A program made the position numbers and the translations under genes. 64,000 nucleotides of DNA from an uncultured Actinomycetota bacterium (GTDB lineage: Bacteria; Actinomycetota; Actinomycetes; Actinomycetales; Dermatophilaceae). Every line of letters begins with the position of its first letter. The stretch's first letter is position 1. Under the pieces are notes generated by a model. The model did not search any database, was not told the DNA's origin, and saw only the letters and a list, made by a program, of their open reading frames with translations. Below are positions 39,789 through 48,594 of this stretch, in pieces. Location of the stretch: contig CAWGWN010000003.1 in assembly GCA_963826375.1 (NCBI GenBank), positions 64,352 through 128,351 on the forward strand, read 5' to 3'.

Positions 39789-39873
39789 CCGTCGTCACGG
39801 CATACCTCGGGTCGCCGGGTGGGCCTGTGGACGACGGCGGCCAAGGTCGCCGGGGCCGCCCTAGCCTCAGGCC

Positions 39874-40185
39874 ATGGCCAGGTACACCTCGTCACCCGAC
39901 GACCTCGAGGTAGCGGCCGGGCAGGTCCGCCGCGACGCGGAGCTGCTGCGGGGGCTCGCCCCCACCCTGGATGCAGCCACCTCCGAGGGGCGCACCGGAG
40001 TGGGGGTGAGCCATCCGCGGCTCGCGCAGGCGGTGGGCGAGCTGGGTCGGGTGGAGAGCGCCGTGCTGCTCGCCCTGGCCGACGCCGCCGAGATCCTCAC
40101 GGCCGGCTTCGCCGGAGCCGCCGAGGACTACCGGGACGCGGAGATCCGCGCCGCCGCGATGATGCGTCCGGGCGGTGGGTCGTGA
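39874..40185 (+). CDS. Small helical WXG100/ESAT-6-like type VII secretion substrate (putative)
   Basis: 103 aa, Ala-rich helices, C-terminal YRDAE (YxxxD/E signal); TAGCCT-N6-ATG. Confidence 0.7.
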   Translation: MARYTSSPDDLEVAAGQVRRDAELLRGLAPTLDAATSEGRTGVGVSHPRLAQAVGELGRVESAVLLALADAAEILTAGFAGAAEDYRDAEIRAAAMMRPGGGS

Positions 40186-42731
40186 GTGTCCGTACCGGCC
40201 GCGATGACGGCCAGGGGGACGGCCTCGGTGTCCGGCCGGCCGTGGCCGATGGCAGCCTCGAGCTACCCCTGCCCCCCGGGGCGCCTGGGTCGCTCTGGCG
40301 TTCGGCCGGCCTGCTCACGAGCGTCGCCAGCCAGGCCGGCGCCGGCCCCCTGGCGACCCAGGGCGGCCAGGCGTTCTTCCTCGCCCGGACGTGGGCCGGA
40401 GCCGCCTTCGACGCGGCCCGTCAGGATGCGGCCCGGACGGCCGAGCGGATCACCGGGCAGGGTGAGCGGCTGGGCGACGCGGCCGCGGCCCTCGCCGGCT
40501 TCGGAGACGCCCTGGACCTCGCCCAGCGTCGGGTGCTGGTGCTGCAGCGCGCCTGGGACGCCGCCCACCGCGCCGCCGTCACGACGCTGACAGACCTGCC
40601 CTTCGCCGGCACTCCGGACGGAGGATCGGTCGGCCACACCGCCGAGACAGCGCGACGTGCGGCGTGCGCCGAGCTGACCCGTCATTACGCCGACTGCCTG
40701 GCGGAGCTCGACACTGCCGCCGGCCGAGCGACCCAGGCTCTGCTCTCGCTGGCGGATCGGGCAACTCAGCGCGTCGTGCCGGCCGGGGCTGGGGGGTCAG
40801 CGGCGGCAGAGACGCCGTCGCAGAACGCTCGCTCCGCCGCCCTCGCCGGGCTGGACGTGGTGACGGGCCGACTGGCGACGCTGCGGGCCGAGGCGGACGC
40901 GGTGGAGCTGCAGGGACTGCTCGACAGCGTGGCGCGGGGGCGGGTGGAGGCGGTGGACGACGCAGCCCGGCTGCTGTCCGGCCGCGGCGCCGACCCGATC
41001 TTCGCCACGGCGGTGATGGCGTCGATGAGCCCAGCACAGCTCGGCGCGGTCGTCGCCGCCTGCGCGGTCCGGGGTCCCGAGTCCTGGGCCGTGGACCCGA
41101 CCTGGCTCGCAGCGCGTAGCGCCGCCCTCGTATCGGGGCTCGGCGTCGCGATGACGACTGCCGCCGACCCTCGCCGCACCAGGGCGCTCGACCCCGCCAC
41201 CGCCGGCCGGATCGACCGCTGGCGCGCCGGGTGGCTCCCGAGGCTGTCGGCGTCGGTGGGCCAGTCCGTGCATCGTCCCGACGGGTCGACGGTCGGCGGT
41301 GGCTGGGTGCAGGGGCAGCTCCTTGCGGGCGCGGCCCGCGAGGGCCCCGGCCACAGCCCCGGCCCGCTCTACGCCGCGAGCGTCGGCATGGCGATGGTCG
41401 GCCTCGAGCGGGCGGTGGTCCGCCGTGCCGGCTCGGGCGAGGGGATGCACTTCACGGGGACCACCGGAGGTCGCATCAGCGTGTTCGGGCCGGGGTTGGA
41501 GGACGGGATCCTCGCGCTCGAACAGTCCCTGCGCGCCGATCCCGAGTCGAGCCGGGCGTTCCTGCTGGGCCCGGTGCCTGCGGAGCGTGACGTGCTCGTC
41601 GTCGACCACCTCGTCGGTGACCGCTTCCGGCTGCTGCCGGACGAGCAGGCCGCCGCCTCGCTGGCCGCACTGGGCGAGCTGGTCGTCGAGGCGGGTTCGG
41701 ACCCCCGAGACATGAAGTCGACACATCTCGCGGCCCGGTTCGTCAACGACGTCGGGGCCACGGCCGCGAGTGCGCAGGACCTGCCCCGGTTCCGCCGTGC
41801 CCTCGCCCCGGCCCTCTACCCTCTCGCGACCGTCATCGGCTCCCATCCGGATGCCCTCTGCGACCTCCTCGACGGGACGACCCAGCAAGGGGTCGACGCC
41901 CAGCAGCTCGACTCGGTCGAGCGGCTGGTGCGCCAGGGACGCGAACCCGGCACGTCCGACATCGTCTGGGCCGACCGGCGGACGGCAGCGGCGGCCCTCG
42001 GTGAGCTGGCCCTCGACCGGGTCGACGGCGCCTCCGCGTCCGACGGGCCGACCCGTGCGCCCGCTCTCGTGCACGTCGTCGAGTCCCTGGCGGAACGCCA
42101 GCAACCAGACCTCCTGTCGGCGGTGGCACGCGACGGGGCCGGTGACCCCCATGCACTCGACGCGGCCGCTCGCCGGGTCGGCAGCACGGTCGGCTTCACC
42201 GTGGCGAGCGGCGGCGAGACCCTGGCCGTTGTCCGGGCGACGCAGGACGCGGAGCACACGGCGATGACGGCCGTCGCCGACCTGGTCGTCGACGACATGC
42301 CGCTGCCGCACCAGCTGGGCAAGGTCGGGGCTGCGCTCGCCCGGCACGCGGCGGCCGGGGTCGTGGCCGAGCTGCTGCCGACCGATGCGGAGTCGACCCA
42401 GCGTGCGGCCACCGCCGCGACGCTGGGCAGGATCGGCGACGACGCCACCGCCGCCGGCCGGACGGTGGTCAGCGAAGCCGCCCCGTGGTCCGCGGCCCAG
42501 TCACCCCAGACCTGGGCGGCCGGCACGACCCGCCACGTCACGCCGTTCTGGGGCGCCGACGGGCGTCCGCGGCCGGAGACCGAGCTGCAGACCGCCGAGC
42601 TGCGCTCGTTCAACGACTGGCGCCGCGACCTGGCGCTGTCGGTCTACGACGAGGTGCCGGCGCGGATCCGGGCCGGCATCGAGGCCGGCGCCGCCCAGGC
42701 CCTGACCCAGGTCCCTCGCCACCCCTCGTAG
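40182..42731 (+). CDS. Large putative T7SS effector with an N-terminal WXG100-like domain; C-terminal region of unknown function
   Basis: PGAPGSLWRSA...TWAGAAFDAAR...L..AAAAL..F...L..AQ; GTGA overlap with the small partner. Confidence 0.65.
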   Translation: MSVRTGRDDGQGDGLGVRPAVADGSLELPLPPGAPGSLWRSAGLLTSVASQAGAGPLATQGGQAFFLARTWAGAAFDAARQDAARTAERITGQGERLGDAAAALAGFGDALDLAQRRVLVLQRAWDAAHRAAVTTLTDLPFAGTPDGGSVGHTAETARRAACAELTRHYADCLAELDTAAGRATQALLSLADRATQRVVPAGAGGSAAAETPSQNARSAALAGLDVVTGRLATLRAEADAVELQGLLDSVARGRVEAVDDAARLLSGRGADPIFATAVMASMSPAQLGAVVAACAVRGPESWAVDPTWLAARSAALVSGLGVAMTTAADPRRTRALDPATAGRIDRWRAGWLPRLSASVGQSVHRPDGSTVGGGWVQGQLLAGAAREGPGHSPGPLYAASVGMAMVGLERAVVRRAGSGEGMHFTGTTGGRISVFGPGLEDGILALEQSLRADPESSRAFLLGPVPAERDVLVVDHLVGDRFRLLPDEQAAASLAALGELVVEAGSDPRDMKSTHLAARFVNDVGATAASAQDLPRFRRALAPALYPLATVIGSHPDALCDLLDGTTQQGVDAQQLDSVERLVRQGREPGTSDIVWADRRTAAAALGELALDRVDGASASDGPTRAPALVHVVESLAERQQPDLLSAVARDGAGDPHALDAAARRVGSTVGFTVASGGETLAVVRATQDAEHTAMTAVADLVVDDMPLPHQLGKVGAALARHAAAGVVAELLPTDAESTQRAATAATLGRIGDDATAAGRTVVSEAAPWSAAQSPQTWAAGTTRHVTPFWGADGRPRPETELQTAELRSFNDWRRDLALSVYDEVPARIRAGIEAGAAQALTQVPRHPS

Positions 42732-42743
42732 CCGGCGCGACGC

Positions 42744-42959
42744 CTACCGGGTGGGCTCGCCGTCCTCCCGTTCCCGCCGGACCGCGTCGGGCACCTGCCC
42801 CTCCCAGTCGGCCGGGGTCCAGGACTGCGAGCGGACCCACTCGCTGCCGCAGGAGCGGCAGGCGAAGAGCCGCTCCCCGTCGAGCTCGTCGCCGGTCGCG
42901 TCCCACGCGCACTCGGACAGGCACGCGGAGATCGCCAGCGCGCGGGTCGGTCGGTCCAT
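42744..42959 (-). CDS. Small Cys-rich protein (71 aa), possible zinc ribbon
   Basis: CLSEC and CRSC, Trp-rich (EWVRSQSWTP); GAGGAT-N6-ATG. Confidence 0.65.
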   Translation of the reverse strand: MDRPTRALAISACLSECAWDATGDELDGERLFACRSCGSEWVRSQSWTPADWEGQVPDAVRREREDGEPTR

Positions 42960-43016
42960 GGACCCATCCTCGCAAGGGTGGCGGCATCCGCCGTCACCAC
43001 GTGCCAGGGTGAGGGG

Positions 43017-45908: not shown

Positions 45909-46354
45909 CGGCTGCGCCAGCGGAACGGCACCGGCTCGCCCAGGTGAGCCTGCAGGATCTCGCGCTCGTCGGGACGGATCCGTCGCGGGCTCGACGCGGG
46001 GAAGTCGTAGACCACCAGGCCCGTCTCGGCGCGGGCGTAGTGCCCTGCGCCGACCCCGTCCGGGTCGCGGACGTCGTAGCCGAGGTCGAACCCCGCGCCG
46101 CCGACCTTCGTGCACCACATGTCGACCGCGATCGGGGCGTGCCGGAAGGTCAGTGGCGCGATGTACTCGATCTCGTGCCGGGTGACGAGGACGCCCTCGT
46201 CGAGCAGGGCCTTGTCCCGACCGAACCACTGCTCGAACCCGGTGACCCGGGCGTCCTCGAGCAGGCGGAGGAACTGGACGTTGTTGACGTGCCCGTAGGC
46301 GTCCATGTCGGACCAGCGCAGCGGGACACTCACGCGGTAGTGCGAGGACGGCAT
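45905..46354 (-). CDS. Acyl-CoA thioesterase (4HBT/hotdog)
   Basis: LRWSDMDAYGHVNNVQFLRLLEDAR. Confidence 0.92.
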   Translation of the reverse strand: MPSSHYRVSVPLRWSDMDAYGHVNNVQFLRLLEDARVTGFEQWFGRDKALLDEGVLVTRHEIEYIAPLTFRHAPIAVDMWCTKVGGAGFDLGYDVRDPDGVGAGHYARAETGLVVYDFPASSPRRIRPDEREILQAHLGEPVPFRWRSR

Positions 46355-46439
46355 ACCCCATCTTGGCAGGCCCGACCCCTGGGGGGCCGCCTACCCCGCT
46401 GCTCTGTCCGGCCGACCAGGGACGACGCCCGATCACCCT

Positions 46440-46461
46440 TGTCCGGCCCGCCCCGTACGGT
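46440..46461 (+). promoter_or_regulatory. Possible PafBC/RecA-NDp-type DNA-damage promoter TGTCCG-N10-TACGGT
   Basis: 5/6 match to TGTCGG with correct N10 spacing to the -10; ATG follows 6 nt later. Confidence 0.4.
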
Positions 46462-46467
46462 GGCCGG

Positions 46468-48594
46468 ATGAGTGCTCCTCCGGCCACCGAGCCTGCTGAC
46501 AACCTCGCGGCTGACGCCACGACAGCACTGGGTCGCCTCGTGGGCCGCGACGACGTCGAGTTCCGCGACGGGCAGCTCTCGGCGATCGAAGCGCTCGTCG
46601 GTGGCCGGCAGCGGGTCCTCGTGGTCCAGCGCACCGGGTGGGGCAAGTCGGCGGTGTACTTCGTCTCGACAGCGCTGCGACGGGCGGCCGGCGCCGGTCC
46701 GAGCATCATCATCTCCCCGCTGCTCGCCCTCATGCGCGACCAGATCGCCGCCGCCGAGCGGGCCGGCATCCGTGCCGTCTCGATGAACTCGGCGAACGCG
46801 CAGGAGTGGGGCGACATCGCCGCGGCTCTGGCTCGCGACGAGGTCGACGTCCTTCTGGTCAGCCCGGAACGGCTCAACAACCCGCGCTTCCGTGAGGAGC
46901 AGCTGCCCGACCTCGCGCGCCGGTGCGGGCTGCTCGTCGTCGACGAGGCGCACTGCGTCAGCGACTGGGGGCACGACTTCCGGCCGGACTACCGCCGGAT
47001 CCGCGACCTGCTGACCACCCTGCCGTCCGACACCCCTGTCCTCGCGACGACCGCGACGGCCAACGCCCGGGTCGTCACCGATGTCGCCGAGCAGCTGGGA
47101 GCCGGCGGTCACGACGTGCTCACCCTCCGGGGTGGCCTGGCTCGGGAGTCGCTGCGACTCGGCGTGCTGCCGCTCGCCGCGCCGGAGCAGCGGGTCGCCT
47201 GGCTGCTCGCCCACCTCGACGAGCTGCCGGGCAGCGGGATCATCTACACGCTGACGGTGTCGGGCGCGGACGACGTCGCGGCCACCCTGCGTGAGGCCGG
47301 ACATGAGGTGCGCTCCTACACCGGCCGCACCGACCCGGCAGACCGCGAGAGCCTTGAGGCGGCCCTACGGGACAACCGGGTCAAGGCGCTGGTCGCGACC
47401 AGCGCCTTGGGCATGGGGTTCGACAAGCCCGACCTCGGGTTCGTCCTCCATCTCGGTGCGCCGTCCTCGCCGGTCGCTTACTACCAGCAGGTCGGACGTG
47501 CCGGACGTGCGACGAGCAGCGCCGACGTCCTGCTGCTGCCCGGGCCCGAGGACAAGGACATCTGGCGCTACTTCGCGTCGGCGTCGATGCCGAGGCAGGA
47601 GCAGGCCGACGCGGTGCTCACGGCCCTCGCCGAGTCGCCGAAGCCGCTGTCCACACCGGCCCTGGAGACCATCGTCGACATCCGACGCACCCGGCTCGAG
47701 CTGCTCCTCAAGGTCCTGGACGTGGACGGAGCCGTCGCCAAGGTGCCCGGCGGGTGGACCTCGACCGGGACGCCGTGGAGCTATGACGCCGAGCGGTATG
47801 AGCGAGTGGCCCAGGCCCGCGACCGCGAGCAGCAGCTGATGCTCGACTACGAGAGCGGCACGGGCTGCCGAATGGAGTTCTTGCAGCGGTCCCTCGACGA
47901 CGACACCGCTGCCCCGTGCGGGCGGTGCGACCAGTGCGCTGGCGTGTGGTTCGCCGACACCGTCCCCGACGCGGCCCTGCTCACCGCCCGTGGGCAGCTG
48001 CAGCGGGTCGGGGTCGACCTCGAGCCACGGGGGCAGTGGCCGAGCGGTATGGCGCGCCTGGGGGTCCCGCTCTCCGGCAAGATCGCCGCGAACGAGGCCG
48101 TGTCGGCCGGCCGCGCTCTGGCCCGGCTGACCGACCTCGGCTGGGGCCAGCGGCTGCGCGAGCTGCTCCGGGCGGACGCTCCGGTGTCTCCGGAGCTGCT
48201 CCGCGCCTGCGTCGGCGTCCTGCGCGACTGGGGCTGGTCGCAGCGCCCGACCGGGGTGGTCGCCGTGCCGTCGCGGTCGCGTCCGGAGCTCGTCGACTCG
48301 CTCGCCCGGGGGCTCTCGGAGATCGGCCGGCTGCCGTTCCTCGGGACGCTCGACCTCGTCGAGGACGGCCCGACCGGGGAGGCTGGCGGGAACAGCGCCT
48401 TCCGGCTCGCCGGGGTCTGGGGCCGGATCGCGGTGCCCCCGGAGCTCGCGTCGACGCTCGCCGCCTCCTCCGGTCCAGTGCTGCTGGTCGACGACCTCGT
48501 CGACTCTCGCTGGACCATGACGGTGTGCGGGCAGGCGGTTCGAGCGGCCGGCGCCGACGCCGTGCTGCCCTTCGCCCTCGCCACCGCCGGCTGA
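46468..48594 (+). CDS. RecQ-family helicase with Zn domain and C-terminal PRTase-like domain (RqlH-like)
   Basis: TGWGKS, DEAH, QQVGRAGR, C..F....D...CGRCD.C and VLLVDDLVDS.WT. Confidence 0.93.
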   Translation: MSAPPATEPADNLAADATTALGRLVGRDDVEFRDGQLSAIEALVGGRQRVLVVQRTGWGKSAVYFVSTALRRAAGAGPSIIISPLLALMRDQIAAAERAGIRAVSMNSANAQEWGDIAAALARDEVDVLLVSPERLNNPRFREEQLPDLARRCGLLVVDEAHCVSDWGHDFRPDYRRIRDLLTTLPSDTPVLATTATANARVVTDVAEQLGAGGHDVLTLRGGLARESLRLGVLPLAAPEQRVAWLLAHLDELPGSGIIYTLTVSGADDVAATLREAGHEVRSYTGRTDPADRESLEAALRDNRVKALVATSALGMGFDKPDLGFVLHLGAPSSPVAYYQQVGRAGRATSSADVLLLPGPEDKDIWRYFASASMPRQEQADAVLTALAESPKPLSTPALETIVDIRRTRLELLLKVLDVDGAVAKVPGGWTSTGTPWSYDAERYERVAQARDREQQLMLDYESGTGCRMEFLQRSLDDDTAAPCGRCDQCAGVWFADTVPDAALLTARGQLQRVGVDLEPRGQWPSGMARLGVPLSGKIAANEAVSAGRALARLTDLGWGQRLRELLRADAPVSPELLRACVGVLRDWGWSQRPTGVVAVPSRSRPELVDSLARGLSEIGRLPFLGTLDLVEDGPTGEAGGNSAFRLAGVWGRIAVPPELASTLAASSGPVLLVDDLVDSRWTMTVCGQAVRAAGADAVLPFALATAG

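Follow-up and report, generated by a model that had tools for sequence, protein, structure and literature searches.

A putative type VII-style effector pair with a DUF6571 scaffold, no recognizable toxin and a DnaA-box-like promoter element in a Dermatophilaceae genome

The two-gene unit described here raises the question of what a pair of proteins bearing the marks of a type VII secretion system (T7SS) substrate and its partner could be for, and by what route it would leave the cell, when no recognizable toxin, immunity gene or secretion locus lies beside it. The pair is located in a 64,000-nucleotide stretch of DNA (the window) from an uncultured, soil-type bacterium of the Dermatophilaceae (assembly GCA_963826375.1, contig CAWGWN010000003.1, positions 64,352 to 128,351); the source genome is referred to as G000, with C2, C3, C7, C8 and C9 denoting its contigs, and the family survey covered 151 sampled genomes of the same bacterial family. 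The best explanation, which we hold with about as much doubt as confidence, is that the genes encode a type VII-style effector pair belonging to a polymorphic family, in its DUF6571 branch; the pair would share its regulation with a system composed of an FHA-EssC-type ATPase and a WXG100 protein, which probably exports it, and the large protein would end in a non-enzymatic helical tip.

The small partner, P0001 (open reading frame [ORF] 1, 39874..40185, forward strand, 103 aa), and the large partner, P0002 (ORF2, 40182..42731, forward strand, 849 aa), overlap by 4 nt in the sequence GTGA, with the GTG start of ORF2 overlapping the TGA stop of ORF1, which agrees with the coupled unit given in a preliminary description of the window. 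The same 4-nt overlap between a gene for ~100 aa and a gene for ~800 aa was seen at all of the related loci with gene calls (L004, L005, L041, and L042). It is possible that the in-frame GTG at 40242 (V21) is the true start of ORF2, because residues 1–19 of P0002 were modeled with a predicted local distance difference test score (pLDDT) <50 and several homologues begin near V21. The G+C content around the pair is 71–78%, and no paralogues of the pair were found in G000. As first described, there is no gene on the same strand 3′ of ORF2 at this locus that could be a small immunity gene, and there are no ecc or mycP genes in the window, the ESX locus of this genome being situated on contig C8.

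The proposal that the two proteins form a pair with a composite T7SS signal is supported by the fold and motif logic of both. The AlphaFold2 model of P0001 (nine homologues, pLDDT 88.7) consists of a helix (residues 8–43), a turn and a second helix (residues 48–97), with Y86-R-D-A-E90 (nt 40129–40143) near the end of helix 2. This YRDAE motif had been described as the end of the protein; it is present at residues 86–90, but 13 residues follow before the C-terminus (...AEDYRDAEIRAAAMMRPGGGS). Almost all of the best ~40 Foldseek neighbors of P0001 in the PDB are EsxA, EsxB, other WXG100 proteins and PE25, with a probability of 1.00 and template modeling (TM) scores of 0.7–0.83, and with E-values of only 0.07–1, as is expected of so small a fold. 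The resemblance to PE25 (27% identity, TM 0.69, E 0.55 in Foldseek) is one of structural likeness only. The family T7SS_ESX_EspC (PF10824) was matched by four of the nine P0001 homologues (best E 1.5e-4) and not by P0001 itself, and a Pfam scan at E ≤ 1 returned no match to LXG, Lap (DUF3130/DUF3958), PE or PPE for P0001 or P0002. The YxxxE motif is retained in six of nine aligned partners and in two that are more remote; a seventh aligned partner keeps the Y but has V in place of E.

In P0002, three long helices make up a WXG100-like N-terminal domain (residues 22–196; 40245..40769, forward strand), as seen in the AlphaFold2 model and by profile alignment. The W-A-G motif noted previously is present and conserved (W71-A72-G73, nt 40392–40400), but the helical domain in which it lies spans ~175 aa, and not the ~100 aa first given. 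The motif falls in the turn of the first hairpin, between two long helices, and its W and G do not vary among seven close homologues, and each is kept at ≥90% across 53 family members. A family profile of P0002 (23 homologues) aligns over residues ~13–99 in register, WxG on WxG, with solved EsxA, EsxB and ESAT-6-like WXG100 chains, 11 of them at E 0.007–0.1 and two more at E 0.4–0.5. Remote members of the P0002 family match WXG100, WXG100_2, T7SS_signal and EspA_EspE, with TPR_23 also matched at the family level; P0002 itself has no match to PF06013 (WXG100) at E ≤ 1, and its relatives score 15–18 bits, which is under the threshold of 27.3.

The protein as a whole was modeled as almost wholly helical (AlphaFold2, 23 homologues, pLDDT 85.8, predicted TM score 0.76). 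A Foldseek search of the PDB with the full-length model returned nothing at E ≤ 1e-3, the best neighbors being ARM/HEAT solenoids (E ~0.05, TM ≤ 0.3), and revealed no enzyme or pore-former fold. No toxin families were identified in P0002 by Pfam and NCBIfam scans, the latter giving only an insignificant match to PPi-phosphofructokinase (E 0.015, 14 of 550 bits), and the earlier statement that no toxin domain can be recognized therefore holds across Pfam, NCBIfam and Foldseek. The suggestion that the protein acts on membranes, on the other hand, is unsupported, as P0002 is an acidic, soluble, all-alpha protein with no hydrophobic segment (maximum KD19 1.6).

The sole Pfam match of P0002 is to DUF6571 (PF20211; residues 628–747 on model positions 501–622), at 16.3 bits and E 0.0036, below the 27-bit gathering threshold. 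Two homologues that are 54–58% identical to P0002 (P0006 and P0123) carry a precomputed PF20211 match, and the family is matched by seven of the 53 family members, with a best E of 1.3e-7. Judged by these matches, P0002 is a divergent edge member of DUF6571, and the DUF6571-like character proposed in the preliminary description was right in that sense.

An exhaustive profile search with P0002 returned 108 representative clusters, and the C-terminal types found across the family are CdiA_C, Peptidase_M91 with RTX repeats, an unnamed 'KVHIR' end and the DUF6571 type. When the DUF6571-type alignment (A4) was compared with a toxin-tipped one (A7) using hhalign, the two matched with probability 100 and E 2.5e-44 over 633 columns, with A4 columns 15–689 on A7 columns 24–685, placing the homology up to about residue 696 of P0002. 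A helical scaffold common to the toxin-bearing relatives thus occupies residues ~210–696 (40809..42269, forward strand; hhalign), and comparison of architectures delimits a C-terminal module of DUF6571-type members at residues ~697–849 (42270..42728, forward strand). Conserved delivery and scaffold regions combined with exchangeable C-terminal modules are what characterizes polymorphic toxins, and this holds across the family; a recognizable toxin with an adjacent co-directional immunity gene was not found at this locus. Since its first ~690 aa are the scaffold shared with toxin-tipped members, P0002 does not represent a new effector class, contrary to what had been put forward. Within the same family, four proteins (P0054, P0059, P0061, and P0088) carry on the same scaffold an end of ~100 aa with the pattern '...SGGATI(D/E)L.F.DG...KVHIR', which is a candidate undescribed toxin domain. 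One sequence that appeared to be a natural fusion of the small partner with the large protein (P0084) is a frameshifted metagenomic call and was not used.

Close homologues of P0002 (51–93% identity) are few, and at all of those that could be placed the gene order is pepN, mscS, glbO, aglA, the pair, GDPD and MFS. The search of the 151 genomes found P0002 in two of four congeners and matches to its N-terminus in five further genera, that of G122 being marginal (E 1.7e-4). Genome G093 (locus L015) has the same full-length architecture, at 27% identity from end to end. At the same slot in G118 (L016), the small partner is followed by a 931-aa protein ending in CdiA_C (PF18451, E 3.8e-15) and a conserved 106-aa gene, and in G139 (L017) by a 960-aa protein ending in CdiA_C (E 1e-9) and a conserved 139-aa gene of the same 'MSGWMINIDL...' kind. 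These last genes (L016 9280–9600, forward strand; L017 4657–5076, reverse strand) lie directly 3′ of the CdiA_C homologues, share 34% identity between genera and have no Pfam match; they form a candidate new immunity family, and the 106-aa gene plausibly encodes immunity to the CdiA_C protein that precedes it.

In congener G036 the corresponding slot lacks the cassette, aglA being followed by a four-cysteine ORF and GDPD, which indicates that the cassette is accessory. Homologous cassettes fill the aglA–GDPD slot in at least three other genera, however, which makes this an old effector slot and not a recent insertion. The earlier view of the pair as inserted in the glbO–aglA region is therefore borne out by the empty site in G036, but not in so far as it implies recent arrival.

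The C-terminal module occupies the place where the relatives have a further stretch of scaffold and a toxin domain. Its best-conserved stretch reads ...TPFWGADGRPRPE...SFNDWRRD...YD..P, and residues 770–830 show the highest identity of any part of P0002 among close homologues (75%). Conservation in the module across 23 homologues is limited to G794 (invariant), P775 and F789 (both ≥90%), and no conserved polar set of H, D, E, K or R that could be catalytic was found. When the module was sought on other delivery domains, only the same family was returned. The C-terminus of P0002 is not hypervariable and evolves no faster than the N-terminus. Because the module has no catalytic-looking residues and the locus no immunity gene, we read P0002 as a probable binding or structural effector that would be secreted and harmless to its producer, as opposed to an enzyme toxin.

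How the pair might be expressed, and with what, is suggested by the region upstream. Eight pair loci were compared (the window, L004, L005, L015, L016, L017, L041, and L042), and the 70 nt 5′ of the small gene cannot be aligned between genera apart from two elements whose positions do not change, CCTGTGGA(C/T)AAC at −50 to −39 from the ATG and a heptamer, cTA(G/C)nnT, at −13 to −7, after which come 6 nt and the ATG. In the window these are the box CCTGTGGACGAC (39824..39835, forward strand), which stands at the same position in all eight loci, and the −10-like hexamer TAGCCT (39862..39867, forward strand), 25+1 nt past the box and separated from the ATG by 6 nt. The geometry of box, N25, TAnnnT-like hexamer, N6 and ATG is found in 8/8 loci and the heptamer is kept in seven, L042 having gTACGCG with G in the last position; this is a locus of 66% GC, in which the ATG of 'MRFNVAPDNLL' was taken as the start and TACGCG as the hexamer. 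No purine-rich Shine-Dalgarno run precedes the ATG of ORF1, and a leaderless transcript is plausible given the conserved TAGCCT-N6-ATG. Consensus scans for sigma-70 promoters and terminators found nothing in this DNA of 75% GC.

The reverse complement of the window box (TCGTCCACA) equals the actinobacterial DnaA box TTGTCCACA at eight of nine positions, and in the other seven loci the reverse complement of the box is a perfect TTGTCCACA or TTATCCACA. These two sequences are the high-affinity DnaA boxes of Mycobacterium tuberculosis and Streptomyces coelicolor, and of Escherichia coli, respectively (PMC4285127, Table 1). The exact 11-mer of the window, CTGTGGACGAC, also occurs in the oriC of G000 (C7:192160–192732), which lies between dnaA and dnaN, contains at least four DnaA boxes in both orientations and provides the local box consensus. 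The expected number of TGTGGAYRA occurrences in an oriented 100-nt window is 0.0013, and the ESX locus contains no such site. A genome search for TGTGGA-N4-N25-N-TAnnnT gave three matches where simulations gave about 0.5; as this count alone is modest, the weight of the motif lies in its conservation across genera. In the literature searched, no report of a connection between DnaA boxes and T7SS genes was found.

Two candidate machines for the export of such a pair were found in G000. An ESX locus was found on C8 (L002, C8:54642–69049), and a search for ecc and mycP genes beyond the window thus confirms that the genome possesses a T7SS; this locus encodes EccC, which scores far above cut-off against the EccCa and EccCb models, together with EccB, two EccD-like proteins, two S8 (MycP-like) proteases and an Esx pair. 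A 205-aa ORF, to which no family is given, follows the Esx pair. EccB was found in only 32 of the 151 family genomes, and among the six pair-carrying genomes (G000, G093, G098, G118, G027, and G139) only G000 and G093 possess the ESX core, with no EccB, ESX-type EccC or YukD/EccD in the remaining four. Of these ESX-less carriers, G098 belongs to the same genus and is 98% complete in five contigs, and G118 is 100% complete in three. Conversely, two congeners with an ESX locus are without the pair.

The second candidate is an FHA-EssC-type ATPase of ~1500 aa, found in 151/151 sampled family genomes, which has an FHA domain, two transmembrane helices (read by eye) and FtsK/SpoIIIE ATPase domains. 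In G000 it is encoded by a gene for ~1460 aa (C3:181225–185614; with upstream sites C3:181117–185614, L024 11117–15614) that is divergent from tadA and tadB, and its NCBIfam matches are to EssC (1.3e-145), EccCa (1.2e-102) and EccCb (4.5e-88), as against 3e-17 for FtsK. Fusions of FHA (EsrG) with EccC have been reported in Actinomycetales, as have orphan substrates adjoining small hairpin genes (Wang et al., bioRxiv 2026, PMC13622651). The ESX-less carriers G098, G118, G139 and G027 each have one strong (orphan) WXG100 gene, and WXG100 was also found in G000 and G093; that of G000 (95 aa, C2:45087–45467, reverse strand) lies directly downstream of groEL.

It is these genes that share the promoter element of the pair. 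The orphan WXG100 gene of G000 has a strict box followed by N25-CTACCGT and a leader of ~50 nt, and the upstream box recurs at the WXG100 gene of all five further genomes (four strict, G027 with a looser variant). The FHA-EssC gene of G000, likewise strict, has box-N25-GTGGAAT-N6-ATG, with a TGGAAT-type hexamer, and the box recurs in 7/7 further genomes (six strict, G027 with the TGTGGA core only). The same promoter of box, N25 and TAnnnT hexamer also precedes a second orphan pair (G000:C3:46155–48334, or 46155–48429 together with the promoter; L039 656–2835, reverse strand), about 16 kb before the window start, whose small protein (137 aa) contains '...GGTYRWAEE' (YRWAE) and whose large one (625 aa) has 'LWVGE' (W-V-G) and an Abhydrolase_8 (DUF1023) domain (E 1.3e-38). 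As the box is common to the pair, the FHA-EssC gene, the orphan WXG100 gene and the second pair, this EssC-type machine is the likely exporter.

Some further sites of this kind were observed in G000. Two DnaA-box-like sites lie 60 bp apart 5′ of the leaderless-type start of the FHA-EssC gene. A perfect box, CTGTGGACAAC, stands 49 nt 5′ of a 511-aa ORF (G000:C9:1051973–1053557, forward strand) whose N-terminus is Ser/Thr protein kinase-like; this gene may have a bearing on the FHA domain found in the ATPase. The box CTGTGGACGAC was also seen 84 nt 5′ of a 320-aa ORF (G000:C9:301168–302214, reverse strand) that is DUF559/AbiEi-like by eye only.

The gene that lies nearest to the pair on its downstream side is a 71-aa ORF on the reverse strand (42744–42959) with four cysteines in CxxxC/CxxC pairs (MDRPTRALAISACLSEC...CRSCGSEW...), which is zinc-ribbon-like by eye. 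It is convergent with the pair, ends 12 nt past the stop of ORF2 and is followed by the GDPD gene at 42978; it is conserved in genus-level relatives and belongs to no Pfam family. As an immunity gene it was rejected, since G036 has it at the empty site as well, so that it is not tied to the pair.

The marks described above would also be those of a classical ESX (T7SSa) substrate, encoded apart in the manner of EspA/EspC or PE/PPE and recognized by the EccC of the C8 locus. The combination of WxG and YxxxE is the logic of the T7SSa signal, homologues of P0001 match the EspC family, and G000 has a complete-looking ESX core with an Esx pair. Four genomes (G098, G118, G027, and G139), however, have intact pairs without that core, the two ESX-bearing congeners do without the pair, and the shared promoter box is missing from the ESX locus, so that we regard an ESX substrate as distinctly unlikely, and the dependence on EccB/C/D and MycP implied by the preliminary description is doubtful when four of six carriers lack ESX and the box points to the FHA-EssC ATPase. 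That P0002 is instead an antibacterial polymorphic toxin, the last ~150 aa being an unrecognized and perhaps non-enzymatic toxin with immunity encoded elsewhere, or unneeded since the producer is without the target, would agree with a scaffold and architecture homologous to those of the CdiA_C-, M91/RTX- and 'KVHIR'-tipped proteins, with the position of the most conserved part of P0002 where the cargo would be, and with the presence and absence of the cassette among congeners, as for effector islands. This too appears unlikely, as none of the DUF6571-type loci examined (the window, L004, L005, L015, and L041) has a co-directional downstream gene, the convergent four-cysteine ORF is independent of the pair, and the C-terminus is neither hypervariable nor equipped with a conserved polar catalytic set, nor is the module ever found on another delivery domain.

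The pair might, finally, not be secreted at all, but form a cytoplasmic helical complex within a replication- or competence-linked DnaA-box regulon, its likeness to T7SS proteins being ancestral only. The conservation of the DnaA-box-identical operator, the lack of ESX in most carrier genomes and the position of the FHA-ATPase beside tad genes could all be accommodated in this way. Homologues with the same N-terminal ~690 aa, though, bear secreted-toxin modules and immunity-like genes, which is sensible only if they are exported; moreover, a promoter of this type also serves the WXG100 gene and the DUF1023 hydrolase pair, and the ATPase scores as EssC/EccC and not as FtsK. A non-secreted complex is, on this balance, highly improbable. 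Several observations nevertheless weigh against the explanation that we favor, namely an exported effector pair served by the FHA-EssC machine. Neither P0001 nor P0002 passes any curated family threshold in Pfam or NCBIfam, and the links to T7SS families are weak, consisting of weak sequence matches, of matches that are transitive through homologues, or of structural resemblance; helical hairpins match easily, as the Foldseek E-values of P0001 illustrate, and YxxxE is absent from the partners at both CdiA_C-type loci, L016 and L017. The FHA-ATPase adjoins tad genes and scores below the curated EssC/EccC cut-offs, and may have a role other than protein export. A regulator other than DnaA could bind the DnaA-box-identical site, and co-regulation does not establish the pair as a cargo of the ATPase. 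A non-enzymatic toxin, furthermore, stays compatible with the missing conserved catalytic residues.

Under the favored explanation, the P0001 hairpin, which is EspC/PE/Esx-like and carries YxxxE, would bind the WXG100-like N-terminal domain of P0002, and the two together would form the composite export signal. P0002 is built like a polymorphic effector, of the WXG export domain, an alpha-solenoid scaffold of ~500 aa (the DUF6571 core) and a C-terminal cargo module of ~150 aa. In relatives occupying the same slot in other genera, the cargo is a CdiA_C domain followed by an immunity-like gene, whereas in this lineage it is a conserved helical module of the same ~150 aa, for which no immunity protein would be needed. 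Transcription would start at the ATG of the small gene, with the region from −50 to −39 as a putative operator that is identical to a DnaA box and to which DnaA, or a regulator resembling it, would bind; the exporter would probably be the EssC-type machine, not necessarily the C8 ESX locus. A bolder extension of this, which we consider doubtful, is that the FHA-EssC ATPase by the tad genes is the ancestral type VII-like machine of the bacterial family, exporting such pairs with the orphan WXG100 protein under a DnaA-box operator near −44 of leaderless promoters; the result would be an 'attack and take up DNA' regulon coupled to replication or competence, with the DUF6571 protein as a non-enzymatic effector. 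Vibrio cholerae, which couples type VI secretion to competence, offers a comparison for such a regulon.

The kind of system is already known, in that orphan Esx substrates with a hairpin partner, and polymorphic T7SS effector families, have been described. What appears to be new, in the literature searched, is the assignment of DUF6571 to a T7SS-type effector role, the conserved toxin-less tip at a site occupied in other genera by a CdiA_C toxin and an immunity-like gene, the persistence of the pair in ESX-less genomes, and the DnaA-box-identical operator that ties effector pairs to WXG100 and FHA-EssC genes. This gives DUF6571 a role that can be tested, that of the scaffold in a family of polymorphic T7SS-type effectors, and a single chromosomal slot provides a natural comparison set in which the same scaffold carries either a nuclease-type tip with an immunity-like gene or a helical tip without one. 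The occurrence of WXG-type substrates in genomes without ESX points to the FHA-EssC-type ATPase, which all 151 sampled family genomes have, as the exporter. The shared operator also bears on the control of Esx-like secretion outside mycobacteria, where the way in which EsrG phosphorylation alters transcription is stated as not yet known (PMC13622651). Should DnaA be the protein that occupies the box, effector export would be linked to the replication state of the cell.

Among the known systems, EspA/EspC and EspE/EspF of mycobacterial ESX-1 (PF18879, TPR_23, and PF10824) likewise consist of a ~100-aa helical partner and a larger helical protein with WxG, are encoded apart from the secretion locus and have no toxin domain or immunity gene. 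EspA and EspE are about 390–400 aa. P0002, in contrast, has 849 aa, a DUF6571 scaffold and a different C-terminus, and the gene order is reversed relative to EspA/EspC, the small gene here coming first and overlapping the large one; the EspA/EspC-type models are not reached by P0001 and P0002 themselves, and most carriers here are without ESX. The LXG toxins of Bacillota with their Lap1/Lap2 partners, and the actinobacterial WXG/T7SS_signal toxins, share with this pair the helical export domain, the scaffold, the exchangeable C-terminal module and the small hairpin partner. They differ from P0002 in that it has no known toxin domain or immunity gene and its C-terminus is conserved instead of hypervariable.

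With respect to regulation, DnaA acts as a transcription factor at single DnaA boxes at dnaA and nrdAB in E. coli and at dnaA and sda in Bacillus subtilis. As at those promoters, a high-affinity box stands here at a fixed promoter position, and the sequence in the window is found identically in the genome's own oriC; the difference is that the genes controlled here would be secretion genes, with the box centered near −44 of leaderless promoters and the binding of DnaA putative. Among non-mycobacterial actinobacteria, the nearest counterparts are AesA/AesB of Schaalia odontolytica, which are mutually dependent helical-bundle partners inside an esx cluster, and the candidate substrates encoded outside that cluster, each of which lies beside a gene for a small hairpin protein (PMC13622651). 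These resemble P0002 in having an N-terminal helical bundle and in being effectors without an assigned activity, and in both cases FHA-bearing EccC-type ATPases are involved. Unlike the pair described here, they are reported with no DnaA-box promoter element (PMC13622651), and whereas AesB ends in a glycine-rich disordered region, P0002 is modeled as a folded alpha-solenoid.

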